Shown here one piece after another: positions 4,494-12,136 of a stretch of 32,000 nucleotides of DNA (its first letter is position 1; each line of letters opens with the position of its first letter). The position numbers and the translations under genes are program-made. This DNA comes from Nostoc sp. NIES-4103 (GTDB taxonomy: Bacteria > Cyanobacteriota > Cyanobacteriia > Cyanobacteriales > Nostocaceae). The stretch is from assembly GCA_002368335.1 (NCBI GenBank), contig AP018288.1, positions 1,187,343 to 1,219,342 of the forward strand, read 5' to 3'. Under the pieces are notes generated by a model. The model did no database searches. It saw only the letters and a list, made by a program, of their open reading frames with translations, and was not told where the DNA came from.

Positions 4494-4660
4494 GTGGCTT
4501 CTCCTTTAGTGCAGCTAGCTGAAGGGATTATTCCCAAAATTGGCTAGACAATGCGATCGCCCAACACCTATTTTGCATCTGGAAAATCCACAGAGAACAA
4601 TTTTTGGCGATGAATCTATCTAAAGAGGTAAGAGGTAGTACCAAAAGGTAGGAGTTAGGT

Positions 4661-4719
4661 GTCAGTTGTCAGTTGTCATTTGTTAGTTGTCATTTGTCAT
4701 TTGTCATTTGTTAGTTGTT
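4661..4719. repeat. STRR heptamer array (TTGTCAG/TTGTCAT/TTGTTAG)
   Basis: Direct reading: gtcagttgtcagttgtcatttgttagttgtcatttgtcatttgtcatttgttagttg. Confidence 0.9.
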
Positions 4720-4720
4720 A

Positions 4721-4772
4721 TTCATTAATCTCCCCTGCTCCCCCGCTCCCCTGCACCCCTGCACCCCATCTC
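4721..4772. repeat. C-rich short tandem repeat (CCCCTGCT/CCCCGCT/CCCCTGCA/CCCCATT variants)
   Basis: Direct reading: tcccctgctcccccgctcccctgcacccctgcaccccatctccccatttccc. Confidence 0.75.
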
Positions 4773-4863
4773 CCCATTTCCCAGGCTTGCTCTGAGGAAT
4801 CATGCACTTTTTGCGTTATTAGTAGTCAAGGGCCTAAGTACTGGGTACTGGGAAAAAATTCCT

Positions 4864-4940
4864 CCAATTCCCAATCCCCAATCCCCAATCCTCAATCCCC
4901 AATCCCCAATCCCCAATCCCCAATCCCCAATCCCCCAATT
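4864..4940. repeat. STRR heptamer array (CCCCAAT)n ending at the helicase start codon
   Basis: Direct reading of about 10 units: ccaattcccaatccccaatccccaatcctcaatccccaatccccaatccccaatccccaatcccccaatt. Confidence 0.95.
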
Positions 4941-4944
4941 GACA

Positions 4945-6498
4945 ATGCCTCGCACCCCTACATTAACGTTTGATCGTGGTACATTAATTTTGCACCCACC
5001 ACCACGCGGCAAAGCTTGGATGGACTATGCTACATGGGATGATCGAGTTGAAAAATTCCGCATTCCTGCTATTAGATACCGCCCATTGGTAGAAGCACTA
5101 AAAGCAGAAGATGTGCATTTCGTTGATGAGGCAAAGCAATTTTATCCTGTGGATTTGGTTGCCGGTTTAGAAATGGAACCCTATCCCCACCAAAGTGAGG
5201 CGTTAGCGGCTTGGAAGTTGGCGGGAAGGTTAGGGGTGGTGGTGCTACCTACGGCTGCGGGAAAGACTTATCTGGCGCAAATGGCAATGCAGGCGACACC
5301 GCGGACTACTTTGATTGTGGTGCCAACGCTGGATTTGATGCATCAGTGGTATGCACACTTGGTGGCGGCGTTTCCTGATGCTGAGGTGGGGTTGCTTGGG
5401 GGTGGTTCGCGGGATAAAACTGCTATTCTAGTTGCAACTTACGATAGTGCCGCAATTCATGCCGAAGCGCTAGGTAATCAATATGGGTTAATTATTTTTG
5501 ACGAATGTCATCATTTGCCGACAGATTTTAATCGGGTAATTGCAGAGTATGCGATCGCGCCTTATCGTTTGGGACTTTCGGCAACGCCTGAACGCACAGA
5601 TGGGAAACACGCAGACTTAAATATCTTAATTGGGCCGGAAGTATATCGTAAACGTGCTGAAGATTTGGCAGGTAAGGCACTTGCAGAACATGAAATTGTG
5701 CAGATTAAAGTTAAACTATCACAAATTGAACGCGAAAGATATAACGAATTAATCCAAACGCGCAACGATTTTTTAAGACAATCAAAGATATCTTTGGGCA
5801 GTATTCAAGGTTGGCAAATGTTCGTGCAAATGAGTGCGCGATCGCAAGCTGGACGCAGGGCTATGTTAGCACACCGCGAAGCGAAAGAAATTGCTTTGGG
5901 GACTGATGGCAAGTTGCGAATTTTAGCTGATTTACTGGCACAACATTATCCAGAACGGGTGTTAATTTTCACTGCTGATAATGCCACCGTTTATAAAATT
6001 TCTCAAGATTTGCTAATTCCGGCAATCACTCATCAAACTCCGGTGAAAGAACGTCATGAAATCTTAACTAAATTTCGGGAAGGTGAATATAATACCTTAG
6101 TTGCTTCCCATGTGTTAAATGAAGGTGTTGATGTGCCTGCTGCTTCTATTGCTATTATTTTATCTGGTACAGGCTCAACTAGAGAATATATTCAACGTTT
6201 GGGGAGAGTTTTACGTAAAGGCAATATTCAGAATAAACAAGCTATTTTATACGAAGTGATAGCAGAAGATACCAGCGAAGAAAATACTTCTGCACGACGG
6301 AGAGGTGAAGAAAGACGAGGAAATTTACAAGTTATTTACGGCAGTGGTAAAGTAACAACGGCTAAAGCTGCCGAACAATTAGAAATAAACTATACAGTCA
6401 ATAATTCGCAAACGAACAACCAGGAAAATGCTACCAACGGAACTACTAAGCCACCGTCTAAACGGCGAAGAAATAATACCAAAAAGACTGAAGATTGA
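4945..6498 (+). CDS. XPB/Ssl2 (ERCC3/Rad25)-like superfamily-2 DNA helicase
   Basis: The N-terminus [11 protein letters not shown] resembles the XPB damage-recognition domain start. Helicase motifs are [18 protein letters not shown] and [14 protein letters not shown], with a C-terminal lobe ([21 protein letters not shown]). ATG at 4945; the track starts 2 codons earlier at TTG 4939. The basic low-complexity tail overlaps the next gene. Confidence 0.85.
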
Positions 6499-7645
6499 CC
6501 AGAGACATATAGATTTAACTAATGAATTAATTGCCTGCTTTCAAGCAGCACAAGGTAAAACTCAGGGTTTTTTGGAAAATCAGCTTTTAGATTTAGAAGG
6601 AGACGCAACAGATTATCGAGTCAAGCGGGGTTTGGCTTATGTTATCAAAAGCAACTTCTGCACCTTTGAAGTCGTGAGTCCTCTAGAACCACAAATATTA
6701 AGAGAAAGGGTGTTTTCGTTGGCGGCAAAATCTGCACCTAGCCGGGAATCAACACAACTGACATTGAGCAAAATTGCTGATGAATTAACCCAGGAATTAG
6801 AACGAGAAATTTTCATCCAGCAAGTGCAAGATGGACTCTACGCCGACTTATCTGAAAATAAGATTTTAACCAACTTTGATGTTCCTACACCAGTAGATAT
6901 CTTAAATCGATATAACTTATCTCAGGTACAGGGAATATTTTATAAAGCAAGTAAGTTAATATTAAACGCTCATCGCAATGTTCCGGGAGAATATAAGTTA
7001 TTGTTCCGCTATTTAAAGTTATTTCAATTAATGGCTTATATTGAAGGAGACGCTGACCACGGGTTTACAATTACCGTTGACGGGCCGACGAGTTTATTTA
7101 ATGCTAGTACACGTTATGGTTTGGCGATCGCTAAATTGATTCCCGCCTTACTTCATGTCACCAAATGGAGTTTAGCCGCCACCTTACAAACCCGTGATGT
7201 CTACACAGATACGTGGAGAACAGGTAGATTTACCCTCAATTCTGAATGCGGTTTAGTATCCCACTACTCCAAAGGGAAACCCTACGATAGTATGCTAGAA
7301 GCATCCTTTGCTGATAAATGGGATGCGTTAAAAACCGACTGGGTATTAGAGCGAGAAGTGGATTTAATTCCCATTCCTGGGAGTGTGATGATTCCTGATT
7401 TCCGGTTAGTTCATCCTGATGGACGCGACTTTTTATTAGAAATTGTCGGTTATTGGCGACCAGAATATTTACAAAAGAAGTTTTCCCAAGTGCGGCGTTC
7501 TGGTTGTGATAATTTGATTTTGGCAATTTCTGAAAGATTGAATTTGGAAAAAGCGGGGGTAAAGTTAGATAATGTGCCAGCAAGAATTATTTGGTTTAAA
7601 GATAAGTTATTACCAAAAGCTGTATTAGCAGTGTTAGGAGAATGA
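6428..7645 (+). CDS. DUF790 family (Bax1-like) endonuclease, partner of the XPB helicase
   Basis: 405-aa ORF overlapping the helicase 3' end by 71 nt. The N-terminus [21 protein letters not shown] and the C-terminal IPDFRLVHPDGRDFLLEIVGYWRPEYL match my recollection of the DUF790 restriction-endonuclease-like core. Gene order copies the archaeal XPB-Bax1 pair. Confidence 0.75.
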   Translation: MLPTELLSHRLNGEEIIPKRLKIDQRHIDLTNELIACFQAAQGKTQGFLENQLLDLEGDATDYRVKRGLAYVIKSNFCTFEVVSPLEPQILRERVFSLAAKSAPSRESTQLTLSKIADELTQELEREIFIQQVQDGLYADLSENKILTNFDVPTPVDILNRYNLSQVQGIFYKASKLILNAHRNVPGEYKLLFRYLKLFQLMAYIEGDADHGFTITVDGPTSLFNASTRYGLAIAKLIPALLHVTKWSLAATLQTRDVYTDTWRTGRFTLNSECGLVSHYSKGKPYDSMLEASFADKWDALKTDWVLEREVDLIPIPGSVMIPDFRLVHPDGRDFLLEIVGYWRPEYLQKKFSQVRRSGCDNLILAISERLNLEKAGVKLDNVPARIIWFKDKLLPKAVLAVLGE

Positions 7646-7646
7646 C

Positions 7647-7883
7647 ATGAAAAGTATAGAAACAATTGCCACTGTGACAAAAGATGGTAAGATGACAGCG
7701 CAATTACCACCGGATATTTCAGAGGGTGAACATCAGGTGGTGATAGTAATTGATGAGAAGCCTTTGGTTGAGAAAGCAAAGAGCAAAGAAAAACGTCCTC
7801 CTCTGAAATTTTCTGCTTATCCTGTAGGATTAGTCTCGGAAAGCTTAACTTTCCGTAAAGAAAACCTTTATGCAAACGACTAA
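7647..7883 (+). CDS. putative type II antitoxin (small, acidic/basic)
   Basis: 78-aa ORF starting 1 nt after the DUF790 stop. Its 3' end overlaps the ATG of a PIN-type toxin remnant, the classic TA layout. Confidence 0.55.
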   Translation: MKSIETIATVTKDGKMTAQLPPDISEGEHQVVIVIDEKPLVEKAKSKEKRPPLKFSAYPVGLVSESLTFRKENLYAND

Positions 7884-7995
7884 TAATTCTATTTTCATCG
7901 ACACCAATATTTTGGTTTATGCAAATTTAGCCTTGTCGCCGTTGTTTTGCTTTTTGTCATACAGACTGGCTTTAGCCAAAAATATCAAGGCGTAA
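7870..7995 (+). pseudogene. truncated PIN-domain (VapC-like) toxin, only 41 codons
   Basis: ATG at 7870 overlaps the upstream stop. It translates as MQTTNNSIFIDTNILVYANLALSPLFCFLSYRLALAKNIKA*. FIDTNILVYA is the first acidic motif of PIN domains, and the remainder of the domain is missing. Confidence 0.6.
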
Positions 7996-8021
7996 GCTTT
8001 TACATTCTAGGTGAAACACCC

Positions 8022-8122
8022 AAACGTGAAAAGGGAAGTTGTTACAGCCTACGCGAAACACGGAAACGTGAAGGCGGAAGTTATTACAGGGAAGGCGGAA
8101 GTTGTTACAGCCTGCGCGAAAC
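8022..8122. repeat. about 2.5 imperfect tandem copies of a ~30-40-nt unit (GAAGGCGGAAGTTGTTACAGCCTGCGCGAAAC)
   Basis: Direct reading. Units lie at about 8022-8061, 8062-8091 and 8092-8122. Confidence 0.7.
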
Positions 8123-8218
8123 TTAAACCGCTTCTAGAATTTGGAATTGGTAGAAGAACAACGCTAAAGTTTCGTGTTATGAAAGCGATCGCACCCGCCA
8201 AAAGCATTAAACTACATC

Positions 8219-8308
8219 AGGACTTACGCAAAAATCACGAAAAAGCTTAATTTATCGAACCGCCAAGGCGCCAAGAACGCCAAGAATTTGTAGAGTGTGC
8301 GTAAGTCC
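8219..8308. mobile_element. MITE-like element with 11-nt terminal inverted repeats GGACTTACGCA / TGCGTAAGTCC
   Basis: IR arms are at 8220-8230 and 8298-8308. The interior contains cgccaaggcgccaagaacgccaagaa. Related solo 12-mers AGGACTCACGCA occur at 11612-11623 and 12551-12562. Confidence 0.5.
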
Positions 8309-8945: not shown

Positions 8946-11492
8946 GTGGTGGAGTTTGTCGGACGTGAAACGGAACTGCAAAACCTGCACGAGATGTTGC
9001 AGCAAAATGATAGCGTAGCAATTACTGCTATAGCCGGAATGGGTGGACTGGGGAAAACAGAACTTGCTCTACAATATGCAAAGGCTCACCGTGAAACTTA
9101 CAACGGTGGAATTTGCTGGTTGTTTCCCAAAGTTGGGGATGTGGGGATTCAAATTGTCCAGTTTGCCAGAACTCACCTTGATTTAAACGTACCAGATAAT
9201 TTAACAGAAGATTCTAGCCAAAAATTACTTGCCCAAGTGCAATATTGCTTTCGCCTTTGGCGTGAGGGTGATGTGCTGCTAGTGTTGGATGATGTTAGCG
9301 ACTATGAGGAAGTAAAGCCTTATTTACTGTCGTTACCTTCTCGGTTTAAAGTGCTGATGACTACACGTCAGTATTTTGGAGGTATAGCACAATTATCTTT
9401 GGATGTGCTGCAACCAGAGGCGGCGCTGGAGTTATTAAAGTCAATTATTGGGGCGGAACGAATTGAACGAGAGAATGACCTAACCCCCCTACCCCCTTCC
9501 CTGGGAGGGAAGGGGGAGATTTGTTCCCCTCCCCTACAAGGGGAGGGGTTAGGGGAGAGGTCACGCGGGGAAATCGTTGCTTTGCAATTGTGTGAGTGGC
9601 TGGGATATTTGCCTTTGGGTTTGGAATTAGTGGGGCGATATCTGGCGCGGAAGCGGGATTTGTCCCTTACAGAAATGTTGCGGCGATTAAATCAAAAGCG
9701 ATTAGATGAGCGTTCCCTTTCTAAGTCTAAGTCAGAAGCAAACATGACAGCACAACGGGGTGTGTTAGCAGCTTTTGAGTTGAGTTGGCAAGAATTAGAG
9801 GATGCTGATAAAGAGTTGGGCTGTTTGCTGAGTTTATTCGCCGCTGCACCTATACCTTGGGATTTGGTAGAACAATGTTTACCAGAGGAAGACGAGGAAG
9901 AAATCGAAGAAATTAGAGATGAAAAGTTGTTGAATTTGCATTTACTCCAGCGTAAGGGTGAGGGAATTTATCAACTGCATCCACTACTGCGCGAGTTTTT
10001 CCAATATAAGCTTACAGGTTTAGAACGAGCAGAGGAATTTAAGCGATCGCTTTGCGAGGTAATGGTAGCTGTTGCCAAGGAGATTCCTGAAGATCCCATC
10101 CTTGAGCAAATCAACGCTGTTTCCCCTGCAATACCTCACATAGCTGAAGTAGCGAATCATCTCATTCAATACCTCAGCGATGATGATTTAATTTGGCCAT
10201 TCATCGGCAACGCTCGGTTTTACAATGGTCAAGGACTATATGACAAAGCAGCACCTTGGTTTGAGCAGTGTCTAGAAGTTACCAAAAAACGCTTGGGACT
10301 TGAGCATCCATTTGTTGCCACTAGCCTCAACAATCTGGGAGTACTTTACTATTCTCAAGGAAAGTACAGCCAAACCGAACCCCTGTACCTCCAAGCTTTG
10401 GAAATGAAACAACGCCTACTGGGAATTGAGCATCCTTTTTTTGCAGAAAGCCTTAACAATCTGGCGTATCTCTATTACTCTCAAGGAAAGTACAGCCAAG
10501 CCGAACCTCTATATCTCAAAGCTTTGGAAATTAACCAACGCTTACTGGGAATTGAACATCCATCTGTTGCACAAATCTTTAACAATTTAGGGAATCTCTA
10601 CTATTTTCAAGGAAAGTACAGCCAAGCCGAACTCATGTACCTCCAAGCCTTGGAAATGAGGCAACGCATACTAGGAATTGAGCATCCTGATTTAGCCACT
10701 AGCCTCAACAATCTGGCCTTACTCTACGATTCCCAAGGAAGATACAGCCAAGCCGAACCCCTGCTTCTGCAAGCGTTAAAAATGAGGCAACGCCTACTGG
10801 GAATTGAGCATCCTGATTTAGCAAATAGTCTGAACAATCTGGGGTTACTCTACAAATCCCAAGGAAAGTATAGCCAAGCCGAACCCCTAATTCTGGAAGC
10901 GTTAAAAATGAGGCAACGCCTACTGGGAATTGAGCATCCTGATGTTGCACTTAGCCTCAACAATCTAGCGGTACTCTACAAATCCCAAGGAAGATACAGC
11001 GAAGCCGAACCCCTATATCGCCAAGCGCTGGAAATGAACCAAAGCCTACTGGGGCTTGAACATCCTGATGTTGCACTTAGCCTCAACAATCTGGCAGGAC
11101 TCTACCATTCCCAAGAAAACTACAGCCAAGCCGAACCCCTCTATCTCCAAGCGCTGGAAATGAGGCAACGTCTACTGGGACAGGAACATCCATCTGTTGC
11201 AGAAAGCCTCAACAACCTGGCAAATCTCTACAATTCCCAAGAACAGTATAGCCAAGCCGAACCGTTGTATCTCAAAGCTTTGAAAATGAGGCAACGCCTA
11301 CTAGGACAAGAACATCCAGATGTCGCACAAAGTCTCAACAGCCTAGCAACACTCTACCAATCTCAAGAAAAATACAGCGAAGCCGAACCCCTCTACATCC
11401 AAGCTTTAGATATTTGTGAGCGACGCTTAGGACTAAATCACCCCAATACTGTTACTGTGCGTGAAAATTTAGCAGATTTGCGCGATGCCTGA
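8946..11492 (+). CDS. STAND NTPase: NB-ARC domain plus about 11 TPR (TPR_10/12, kinesin-light-chain type) repeats; NLR-like
   Basis: P-loop GMGGLGKTELA, Walker B LLVLDDV, RNBS-B-like MTTR, GLPL-like GYLPLGLELVG, then 42-aa repeats (HPxVAxSLNNLAxLYxSQGxYSxAEPLYxQALEMxQRLLG). GTG at 8946 is the only available start. Confidence 0.9.
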   Translation: MVEFVGRETELQNLHEMLQQNDSVAITAIAGMGGLGKTELALQYAKAHRETYNGGICWLFPKVGDVGIQIVQFARTHLDLNVPDNLTEDSSQKLLAQVQYCFRLWREGDVLLVLDDVSDYEEVKPYLLSLPSRFKVLMTTRQYFGGIAQLSLDVLQPEAALELLKSIIGAERIERENDLTPLPPSLGGKGEICSPPLQGEGLGERSRGEIVALQLCEWLGYLPLGLELVGRYLARKRDLSLTEMLRRLNQKRLDERSLSKSKSEANMTAQRGVLAAFELSWQELEDADKELGCLLSLFAAAPIPWDLVEQCLPEEDEEEIEEIRDEKLLNLHLLQRKGEGIYQLHPLLREFFQYKLTGLERAEEFKRSLCEVMVAVAKEIPEDPILEQINAVSPAIPHIAEVANHLIQYLSDDDLIWPFIGNARFYNGQGLYDKAAPWFEQCLEVTKKRLGLEHPFVATSLNNLGVLYYSQGKYSQTEPLYLQALEMKQRLLGIEHPFFAESLNNLAYLYYSQGKYSQAEPLYLKALEINQRLLGIEHPSVAQIFNNLGNLYYFQGKYSQAELMYLQALEMRQRILGIEHPDLATSLNNLALLYDSQGRYSQAEPLLLQALKMRQRLLGIEHPDLANSLNNLGLLYKSQGKYSQAEPLILEALKMRQRLLGIEHPDVALSLNNLAVLYKSQGRYSEAEPLYRQALEMNQSLLGLEHPDVALSLNNLAGLYHSQENYSQAEPLYLQALEMRQRLLGQEHPSVAESLNNLANLYNSQEQYSQAEPLYLKALKMRQRLLGQEHPDVAQSLNSLATLYQSQEKYSEAEPLYIQALDICERRLGLNHPNTVTVRENLADLRDA
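9476..9570. mobile_element. nested-palindrome small dispersed repeat inserted in frame inside the NB-ARC coding sequence
   Basis: Hairpins are ccccttccct-gg-gagggaagggg and cccctcccct-acaa-ggggagggg, flanked by gacctaacccc...ggggttagg..ggtc. It is translated as LTPLPPSLGGKGEICSPPLQGEGLGERS. The boundaries are approximate. Confidence 0.7.
10230..11480 (+). repeat. 126-nt (42-codon) tandem coding repeats encoding the TPR array
   Basis: Long near-identical stretches recur at a 126-nt period, for example aggcaacgcctactgggaattgagcatcctgat at 10786 and 10912. Confidence 0.85.
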
Positions 11493-11726: not shown

Positions 11727-11945
11727 ATGTTAATTACATACACAGCAAAATATACAAAAATTGATAGCGGATATATGGGACAACTCATTGAATGGCAAGA
11801 AGTCATCACAGAAGGAGAAACTTTAGAAGAATGTAGAGCTATGTTACAAGACGCAACAAGAGAAATGATACTCGCCTATCGTCAACAAAATAAAGAAATT
11901 CCTACAGGTAATTCTTTACTAGAACAAATTCCTGTAGAGGTTTGA
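11727..11945 (+). CDS. hicB: HicB-family antitoxin
   Basis: 72 aa. YTAKYTKIDSGYMGQLIEWQEVITEGETLEECRAMLQDATREMILAY matches the HicB/UPF0150 fold pattern. It overlaps the hicA start. Confidence 0.8.
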   Translation: MLITYTAKYTKIDSGYMGQLIEWQEVITEGETLEECRAMLQDATREMILAYRQQNKEIPTGNSLLEQIPVEV

Positions 11946-12136
11946 GCGTGTCAGTCAAACGAAAAGATATTATTAAATATTTAGAAGAGAATGGATTTTA
12001 TCTGTTAAGAGAAGGAGGAAATCATTCCATTTATACTAATGACGTGAAAACTATTCCCGTCAAACGACATCGTACAATTGATCGCATTACTGCTAATGAA
12101 CTCTGCAAACAGGCAGGTTTGTTGCCTAAATTTTAA
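11942..12136 (+). CDS. hicA: HicA-family mRNA interferase toxin
   Basis: 64 aa. KRKDIIKYLEENGFYLLREGGNHSIYTN...IPVKRHRTIDRITANELCKQAGL is the typical YcfA/HicA pattern. The start is TTG 11942 or GTG 11948. Confidence 0.8.
   Translation: MSVSVKRKDIIKYLEENGFYLLREGGNHSIYTNDVKTIPVKRHRTIDRITANELCKQAGLLPKF

Follow-up and report, generated by a model that had tools for sequence, protein, structure and literature searches.

A helicase-nuclease gene pair of Nostoc sp. NIES-4103 is probably a core bacterial counterpart of archaeal XPB-Bax1

The genes described here lie in a 32,000-nucleotide (nt) stretch of DNA from Nostoc sp. NIES-4103 (GenBank assembly GCA_002368335.1, contig AP018288.1, forward-strand positions 1,187,343 to 1,219,342), hereafter referred to as the window, to which all positions given without another label refer. 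They form a pair composed of an SF2 helicase gene of the XPB (Rad25/ERCC3) type and, overlapping its 3′ end, a gene for a Bax1/DUF790 nuclease; an antitoxin-like gene and the stump of a PIN toxin gene follow on the same strand, and tandem-repeat arrays precede the helicase gene (Table 1). A preliminary description of this DNA had read the two genes as an XPB-like helicase and a DUF790/Bax1-like nuclease in the archaeal XPB-Bax1 arrangement, and both family assignments were confirmed by profile searches and by alignment to solved structures. To place the pair among its relatives, use was made of a kinship panel of 41 related genomes, a sample of 301 genomes from the phylum and 14 named control genomes; orthologous pairs from 20 related genomes, together with the window copy, made up an alignment set of 21 loci.

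An in-frame TTG at 4939 precedes the ATG of the helicase gene at 4945, yielding an open reading frame (ORF; 4939/4945-6498) of 517-519 amino acids (aa), which matches the Pfam families XPB_DRD, ResIII, Helicase_C and ERCC3_RAD25_C. Its XPB identity was borne out by a full-length damage-recognition domain (DRD), by the presence of all helicase motifs, and by the collinearity of residues 7-454 with the XPB protein of Archaeoglobus fulgidus (AfXPB; 2fwr/6p66_A, E=1.7e-100); as aligned, the thumb (ThM) region likewise appears collinear with that of AfXPB and essentially gap-free across residues 222-330. Walker A (TAAGKT), motif II (DECH), motif III (SAT) and motif VI (QRLGRVLR) are invariant in the 21 orthologues. 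Past the end of the AfXPB alignment at residue 454, the tails of the same orthologues share a further conserved motif, GNLQV[IV]YGSGK..., set within variable, low-complexity flanks, which could be a partner-binding peptide.

The match of the second gene to Pfam DUF790 covers the whole profile (1-387 of 387; E=7.6e-156; 519.2 bits against a gathering cut-off of 28.8 bits), and the solved Bax1 chains match it as well (6p66_B, E=5.9e-31). When aligned to 6p66_B, residues D324 and E338 correspond to D305 and E318 of the A. fulgidus protein (AfBax1), both located at the nuclease active site (PMC7293015), and E291, the glutamate of motif I, is placed one position ahead of AfBax1 E275, within LEEEF/LEASF. 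All three residues are invariant in the 21 orthologues, and so is D140, the equivalent of the interface/second-site residue D133 of AfBax1. In the archaeal protein, the D133A/E135A mutation weakens XPB binding 10-fold (PMC7293015). The position of E135 is occupied by S, A, I, N or F in the cyanobacterial set, and the next residue, E143, is invariant.

XPB was found in single copy in all 41 relatives, and DUF790 in single copy in 40 of the 41, including every one of the 24 relatives from the window's family and 15 of the 16 from other families within the order. The sole relative without DUF790 is represented by a 93% complete assembly in 620 contigs. The identity of XPB dropped smoothly with kinship, from 98% within the genus to 64-81% in other families. 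In the phylum sample, 112 genomes carried DUF790 and 111 carried XPB_DRD, the two sets differing by one genome; both genes were carried by each of the 37 sampled genomes of the window's family, and DUF790 occurred in almost every family of the order. XPB and DUF790 were jointly absent from four of the five genomes of one genus, from every one of the 14 genomes of a small-genome family, and from almost all of 166 genomes belonging to more distant families. The two genes are adjacent in the window, as they are in about 28 of 40 relatives, yet both were also kept where they are unlinked, being separated by over 0.5 Mb or located on separate contigs, in 11 of 15 other families with both genes and in 2/24 genomes of the same family. 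That XPB and Bax1 are kept together and lost together without being linked points to a common function maintained by selection. Pairwise identity values for XPB and Bax1 were correlated (r=0.93), and both proteins are well conserved, with a mean identity of 81-85% and invariant residues at 196/409 and 244/575 alignment columns. Among the control genomes, matches were confined to three archaea; searches with DUF790 and XPB_DRD returned none in Synechococcus elongatus PCC 7942, E. coli, B. subtilis or D. radiodurans. No phage record matched the pair, and the 42 plasmid records that did match comprised 12 Deinococcus megaplasmids, the rest being haloarchaeal and none cyanobacterial. XPB and Bax1 are ordinary, vertically inherited core genes of most large-genome cyanobacteria. 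The preliminary description had considered their context to be accessory; instead, the pair proved near-universal and single-copy in the order, which is essentially the conserved core locus that the description itself had named as the outcome contrary to its proposal.

Two related genomes carry a disrupted member of the pair: DUF790 is split into two overlapping frames at G020:C1:5995193-5996400 (profile positions 1-164 and 159-387), and XPB is split at G004:C4:2374942-2376484 (query residues 1-99 and 89-516). These copies are possibly the products of frameshifts or of sequencing errors, and they hint that the pair may be dispensable in some hosts.

We consider the pair to be probably, though not certainly, a bacterial orthologue of archaeal XPB-Bax1 that fulfils a core, vertically inherited, single-copy role in chromosome maintenance beside UvrABC (UvrB is present in this genome), and to be no mobile immunity module. 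Behind this reading stand observations made on the genes themselves, namely their family membership, intact motifs, distribution and co-occurrence, and, as detailed below, the anatomy of their overlap and the decay of the adjoining toxin-antitoxin module. By analogy with archaeal biochemistry, the two proteins would form a physical complex that cleaves bubbles or forks and may serve in repair. XPB would act in such a complex as a 3′→5′ SF2 translocase/helicase with a damage-recognition domain, would bind Bax1 through the N-terminal domain of the nuclease, and would open or enlarge a DNA bubble or fork; it would also position the PD-(D/E)XK-type nuclease domain of Bax1 (E291/D324/E338), and one strand might then be nicked at the junction between double- and single-stranded DNA.

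At the junction of the two genes, the XPB stop codon TGA falls within two codons of Bax1, ATT-GAy (Ile-Asp), which are conserved. An overlap of exactly 71 nt was found at nine of the 21 linked loci, one overlap of 14 nt at another, and gaps of 14-414 nt at the remaining 11. Over the 23 shared codons, identity was 93% in the Bax1 frame versus 53% in the XPB frame. To judge from this codon comparison, the overlapped XPB tail is free of selection, and the 71-nt overlap is a lineage-specific by-product; the same figure recurs because the first stop in the XPB frame, once an earlier stop had been lost, is forced by the conserved N-terminus of Bax1. Translational coupling had been read from the overlap in the preliminary description: the overlap itself was confirmed, and the implied coupling was overstated in view of the number of loci that share the overlap and of the contrast between the two frames. 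An AGGA sits 3 nt 5′ of the ATG, and translation may be coupled at the overlap of the window; such coupling is no conserved property of the pair.

Beyond the pair, the 78-aa ORF that follows Bax1 has no family match in Pfam or PADLOC and only a weak NCBIfam match to RelN (E=0.0087). It is regarded as an antitoxin gene because its homologues adjoin intact PIN genes in other genomes; at three loci (L020, L024 and L031), the homologue is followed by an overlapping, intact PIN gene of 150-154 aa, with a Pfam PIN match (1.7e-5) on one of the three. A tblastn search of the window with the three intact PIN proteins recovered the VapC-like remnant (best E=7e-6; 11/21 identities by BLASTP) and no further PIN fragments. 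The repeat debris found in place of the lost body of the PIN gene belongs to a family that is richer in copies in two genomes of the same genus, in which repetitive ORFs occupy the same position (L014 9942-10277 and L015 9985-10527). In one frame, the repeat family of the window reads GKAEVVTAYAKHGNVKAEV. Antitoxin and PIN gene occur as a pair once per genome. This genome has one copy of the antitoxin homologue, and 15 of the 41 relatives have the homologue as well. It directly adjoins XPB-Bax1 in seven genomes of five genera (G000, G001, G002, G006, G014, G023 and G032), with a spacing of 1-22 nt past the Bax1 stop; G014 harbors two tandem copies after Bax1, and in G032, which belongs to another family, the gene is found upstream of XPB. 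It lies 11 kb from XPB in G037 and away from the pair in G005, G008 and G026. The adjacency is probably due for the most part to inherited synteny, and the best explanation for the antitoxin gene and the PIN stump is that they are what is left of a VapBC-like module, an old neighbor of the pair in this family. Of the decayed toxin-antitoxin module that the preliminary description had seen as fused to the pair, the decay and the arrangement of an antitoxin-like gene 1 nt after the DUF790 stop followed by a truncated PIN gene were verified, the fusion reducing to adjacency.

Clustering of the flanking ORFs of the 21 loci revealed a histidine kinase gene common to 10 of them on the upstream side, and downstream genes that vary in almost every genus. 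The NB-ARC/TPR (NLR-like) gene, plus a small ORF, is a neighbor of the pair in the window's own genus only, and an intact hicBA lies about 4 kb downstream of the pair in one further genus (G016). The NLR-like gene and hicBA downstream, and the short tandem-repeat (STRR) arrays upstream, were all reproduced where the preliminary description had placed them. A survey of synteny, which it had proposed, thus showed a neighborhood conserved only in part, as reflected in the upstream kinase. Scanning for promoters and terminators found no terminator between XPB, Bax1 and the antitoxin gene; one terminator-like site lies inside Bax1, which is below the number expected by chance. The (CCAATCC) array leaves hardly any space for a conventional ribosome-binding site of XPB.

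Table 1 Features in and around the XPB-Bax1 pair (positions refer to the window unless a locus of another genome is named)
Feature	Position	Strand	Basis and remarks
Three stacked short tandem-repeat arrays, divergent intergenic region	4660-4935	.	Tandem Repeats Finder, sequence read
(TGTCAGT)n array	4660-4718		Tandem Repeats Finder
C-rich 8-mer array	4728-4782		Tandem Repeats Finder
(CCAATCC) x10.3 heptamer array	4864-4935		Tandem Repeats Finder; end 9 nt ahead of XPB ATG
Archaeal-type XPB (Rad25/ERCC3) SF2 helicase	4945-6498	+	517 aa from ATG; Pfam, AfXPB alignment, motifs
XPB damage-recognition domain (DRD), residues 7-63	4963-5133	+	Pfam PF18458, E=8.4e-27, profile 1-57 of 57
Conserved motif in XPB C-terminal extension, residues 459-483	6319-6393	+	Tails of 21 orthologues
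Overlap of XPB 3′ end and Bax1 5′ end, exactly 71 nt	6428-6498	+	ORF coordinates, orthologue comparison
Bax1/DUF790 nuclease, 405 aa	6428-7645	+	Pfam DUF790, NCBIfam Bax1 models, PDB 6p66_B
Bax1 nuclease-domain motifs: E291 (DSMLE), D324 (IPDF), E338 (LEIVGYW)	7283-7471	+	6p66_B alignment
Antitoxin-like gene, 78 aa	7647-7883	+	Begins 1 nt past Bax1 stop; homologues precede intact PIN genes
PIN (VapC-like) toxin remnant	7855-7995	+	Homology ends ~7947 (~30 codons), then unrelated sequence to stop at 7995
Repeat debris in place of lost PIN gene body	8011-8308	.	Tandem Repeats Finder: 21-nt unit at 8070-8110
NB-ARC/TPR (NLR-like) gene	8946-11492		Pfam
HicB/HicA	11727-12136		Pfam
Antitoxin/PIN pair, L020	9802-10477		
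Antitoxin/PIN pair, L024	9810-10485		
Antitoxin/PIN pair, L031	6084-6756		
Deinococcus pair, L034 (D. wulumuqiensis plasmid)	4617-7230		
Deinococcus pair, L035 (D. gobiensis plasmid P1)	3501-7260		

Several findings weigh against an XPB-Bax1 pair engaged in chromosome maintenance. XPB scores 197.4 bits where the NCBIfam equivalog cut-off is 610 bits (repair_heli_XPB), and is by this measure a member of the family yet no equivalog under the NCBI threshold; similarly, the NCBIfam Bax1 models score 168.1 and 152.3 bits on the nuclease, the equivalog cut-off being 500. The RED motif of AfXPB, found there in the context E-R-E-D-G, is replaced by E-R-T-D-G in the window (5593-5601; XPB residues 217-219) and reads R-[T/S/Q]-D in 21/21 cyanobacterial orthologues, with R and D invariant. 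LexA-box-like sequences of the form RGTACNNNDGTWCB are absent from the upstream region 4494-4945, and the eight matches counted window-wide, versus 7.2 expected, are at chance level. Conflict-type genes (NLR, HicAB and the toxin-antitoxin remnant) neighbor the pair in the window's genus; the pair stands at the edge of a variable region, and the conflict-type neighbors of one genus say little about its function. A search of the literature found neither experimental work on XPB or Bax1 from any cyanobacterium nor a functional study of the XPB-Bax1 pair in bacteria, in line with the preliminary description, which had called the role of the pair in bacteria, and especially in cyanobacteria, essentially uncharacterized. 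Finally, deletion of XPB in archaea leads to slight UV sensitivity only (review PMC7690668), and the label "repair" is therefore weakly founded. As a tentative extension, which we hold to be on the doubtful side, XPB-Bax1 might constitute in most large-genome cyanobacteria an archaeal-type incision machine and a second, non-redundant lesion/fork pathway beside UvrABC, with the R-T-D variant and a conserved XPB tail motif that may recruit a partner as features peculiar to cyanobacteria.

The combination of a nuclease with an SF2 helicase would also suit an antiphage system of the Hachiman, Pbe or Dnd-restriction kind, housed in a defense island with the toxin-antitoxin remnant, the NLR gene and HicAB. 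Such a system would account for the genes found downstream in the window's own genus (NB-ARC/TPR, HicBA and the toxin-antitoxin remnant) and for the proximity of hsdR and of another nuclease-helicase to the pair on a D. wulumuqiensis plasmid, and the helicase indeed matches PADLOC PbeA models (E=2.3e-53) and NCBIfam dnd_restrict_1 (112 bits). The PbeA match is, however, restricted to the helicase core (model 248-638 of 672), no PADLOC model matches DUF790, and neither HamA nor HamB was matched. PADLOC matches to PbeA, mREase_IV and Cas3-type models were rejected as indications of membership, the similarity being that of helicase cores in general. Known defense systems are usually patchy and mobile, whereas the two genes are single-copy, near-universal in the order, highly conserved and co-occurring even when unlinked, have no phage or cyanobacterial plasmid matches, and adjoin an NLR gene in one genus only, the downstream genes differing nearly everywhere else. 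An antiphage function is thus improbable, and the Hachiman-type defense logic invoked in the preliminary description was not upheld by either the profile matches or the distribution. Scarcely credible, in turn, is the notion that the pair, the antitoxin gene and the PIN gene make up one functional four-gene unit in which the toxin-antitoxin module stabilizes or regulates the locus. Although the antitoxin homologue is single-copy in the genome, adjoins XPB-Bax1 in seven genomes, one of them (G032) from another family, and is tightly spaced from Bax1, it is found in just 15/41 relatives and elsewhere in the genome in three of them; in this genus, loss of the toxin has left the pair unaffected, and most of the linked cases fall within one family, as expected from inherited synteny.

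A third alternative leaves the mechanism proposed above unchanged and differs from it in the substrate only. Here, the pair would have a role in DNA metabolism other than excision repair, acting on stalled or reversed forks, R-loops, interstrand cross-links (in the manner of FAN1/VRR-Nuc) or intermediates between polyploid chromosome copies. The resemblance of the Bax1 nuclease domain to VRR-Nuc/FAN1 and the binding of forked DNA by its Cas2-like domain (PMC7293015) are consistent with such a role, as are the near-normal UV resistance of archaeal XPB knock-outs (PMC7690668), the presence of UvrB, by which classical nucleotide excision repair is covered, and the absence of the pair from streamlined small-genome lineages. 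Direct evidence for it is wanting, on the other hand, XPB has kept its damage-recognition domain, and in D. gobiensis the pair is located directly behind a gene of the spore-photoproduct-lyase family, a neighbor that points to UV lesions. We regard this alternative as unlikely and retain a chromosome-maintenance role akin to that of archaeal XPB-Bax1 as the preferred explanation. What XPB-Bax1 does in vivo is not settled even for archaea, and genetically tractable cyanobacteria could be a good place to learn it, since in most cyanobacteria the pair is core, is lost with genome streamlining and is found beside a complete UvrABC system. The locus also illustrates that the proximity of toxin-antitoxin and NLR genes does not in itself make a defense system of a helicase-nuclease pair.

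Among known systems, the closest in composition is the XPB-Bax1 complex of A. fulgidus and S. tokodaii (PDB 6p66, 6p4f, 6p4o and 6p4w), as defined by Rouillon & White 2010 and DuPrez et al. 2020 (PMC7293015). The same two families occur there in the same gene order; the cyanobacterial XPB shares the DRD, two RecA-like domains and the thumb region in a collinear alignment, and the cyanobacterial Bax1, aligned from residue 1 through the nuclease domain, has the D305/E318 equivalents, the motif-I glutamate and the interface aspartate equivalent to D133. Unlike in archaea, the bacterial host also has UvrABC, of which UvrB was found here. The cyanobacterial proteins further differ in the R-T-D form of the RED motif, in a C-terminal extension of 45-95 aa that carries the conserved motif of XPB, in scores below the NCBIfam equivalog cut-offs, and in the lack of conservation of E135, the second N-terminal active-site residue of AfBax1. 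The 405-aa Bax1 of the window, moreover, aligns to residues 1-347 of the 468-aa AfBax1 and misses its long C-terminal domain.

Pairs borne by Deinococcus megaplasmids resemble that of the window in that their DUF790 protein shares 45-50% identity with the window's Bax1 over 99% of its length and in that a DEAD/DEAH helicase gene lies directly upstream, overlapping the DUF790 gene by 14 nt. In contrast to the chromosomal, core pair of cyanobacteria, they are plasmid-borne and patchy, the D. radiodurans control being without a match. On the D. wulumuqiensis plasmid, a 3′-5′ exonuclease gene is found near the pair in addition to the hsdR and nuclease-helicase genes mentioned above. The likeness to Hachiman (HamA and HamB) and to the PbeABCD and Dnd restriction helicases consists in the association of an SF2 helicase with a nuclease and in a helicase core similar to that of PbeA and dnd_restrict_1; these systems are set apart by the HamA, HamB and PADLOC comparisons reported above and by the core-gene distribution of the cyanobacterial pair.

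The mycobacterial and actinobacterial XPB characterized by Balasingham et al. 2012 (PMC3353954) is likewise a bacterial 3′→5′ helicase of the XPB family. The N-terminal domain of the mycobacterial enzyme is eukaryote-like, both DRD and thumb are missing, and a Bax1 partner is not known for it, whereas the cyanobacterial XPB is of the archaeal type and is accompanied by Bax1. According to the same authors, XPB occurs in few cyanobacteria, if in any, and an XPB-Bax1 complex was not known from bacteria (PMC3353954); our counts contradict their statement on the scarcity of cyanobacterial XPB. The cyanobacterial pairs of COG3372/DUF790 and a COG1061 helicase had in fact been described bioinformatically by Kosinski et al. 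2005 (PMC1189080), who predicted a PD-(D/E)XK nuclease for repair or recombination, "not excluding selfish character", and Steczkiewicz et al. 2012 (PMC3424549) later grouped the cyanobacterial with the Deinococcus sequences. The pair of the window is exactly that COG3372 and COG1061 pair, with no difference of substance. The pair has thus been known since 2005, and what is added here is the quantification of its near-universality and co-occurrence, the frequent unlinking of its two genes, and the origin of their overlap.

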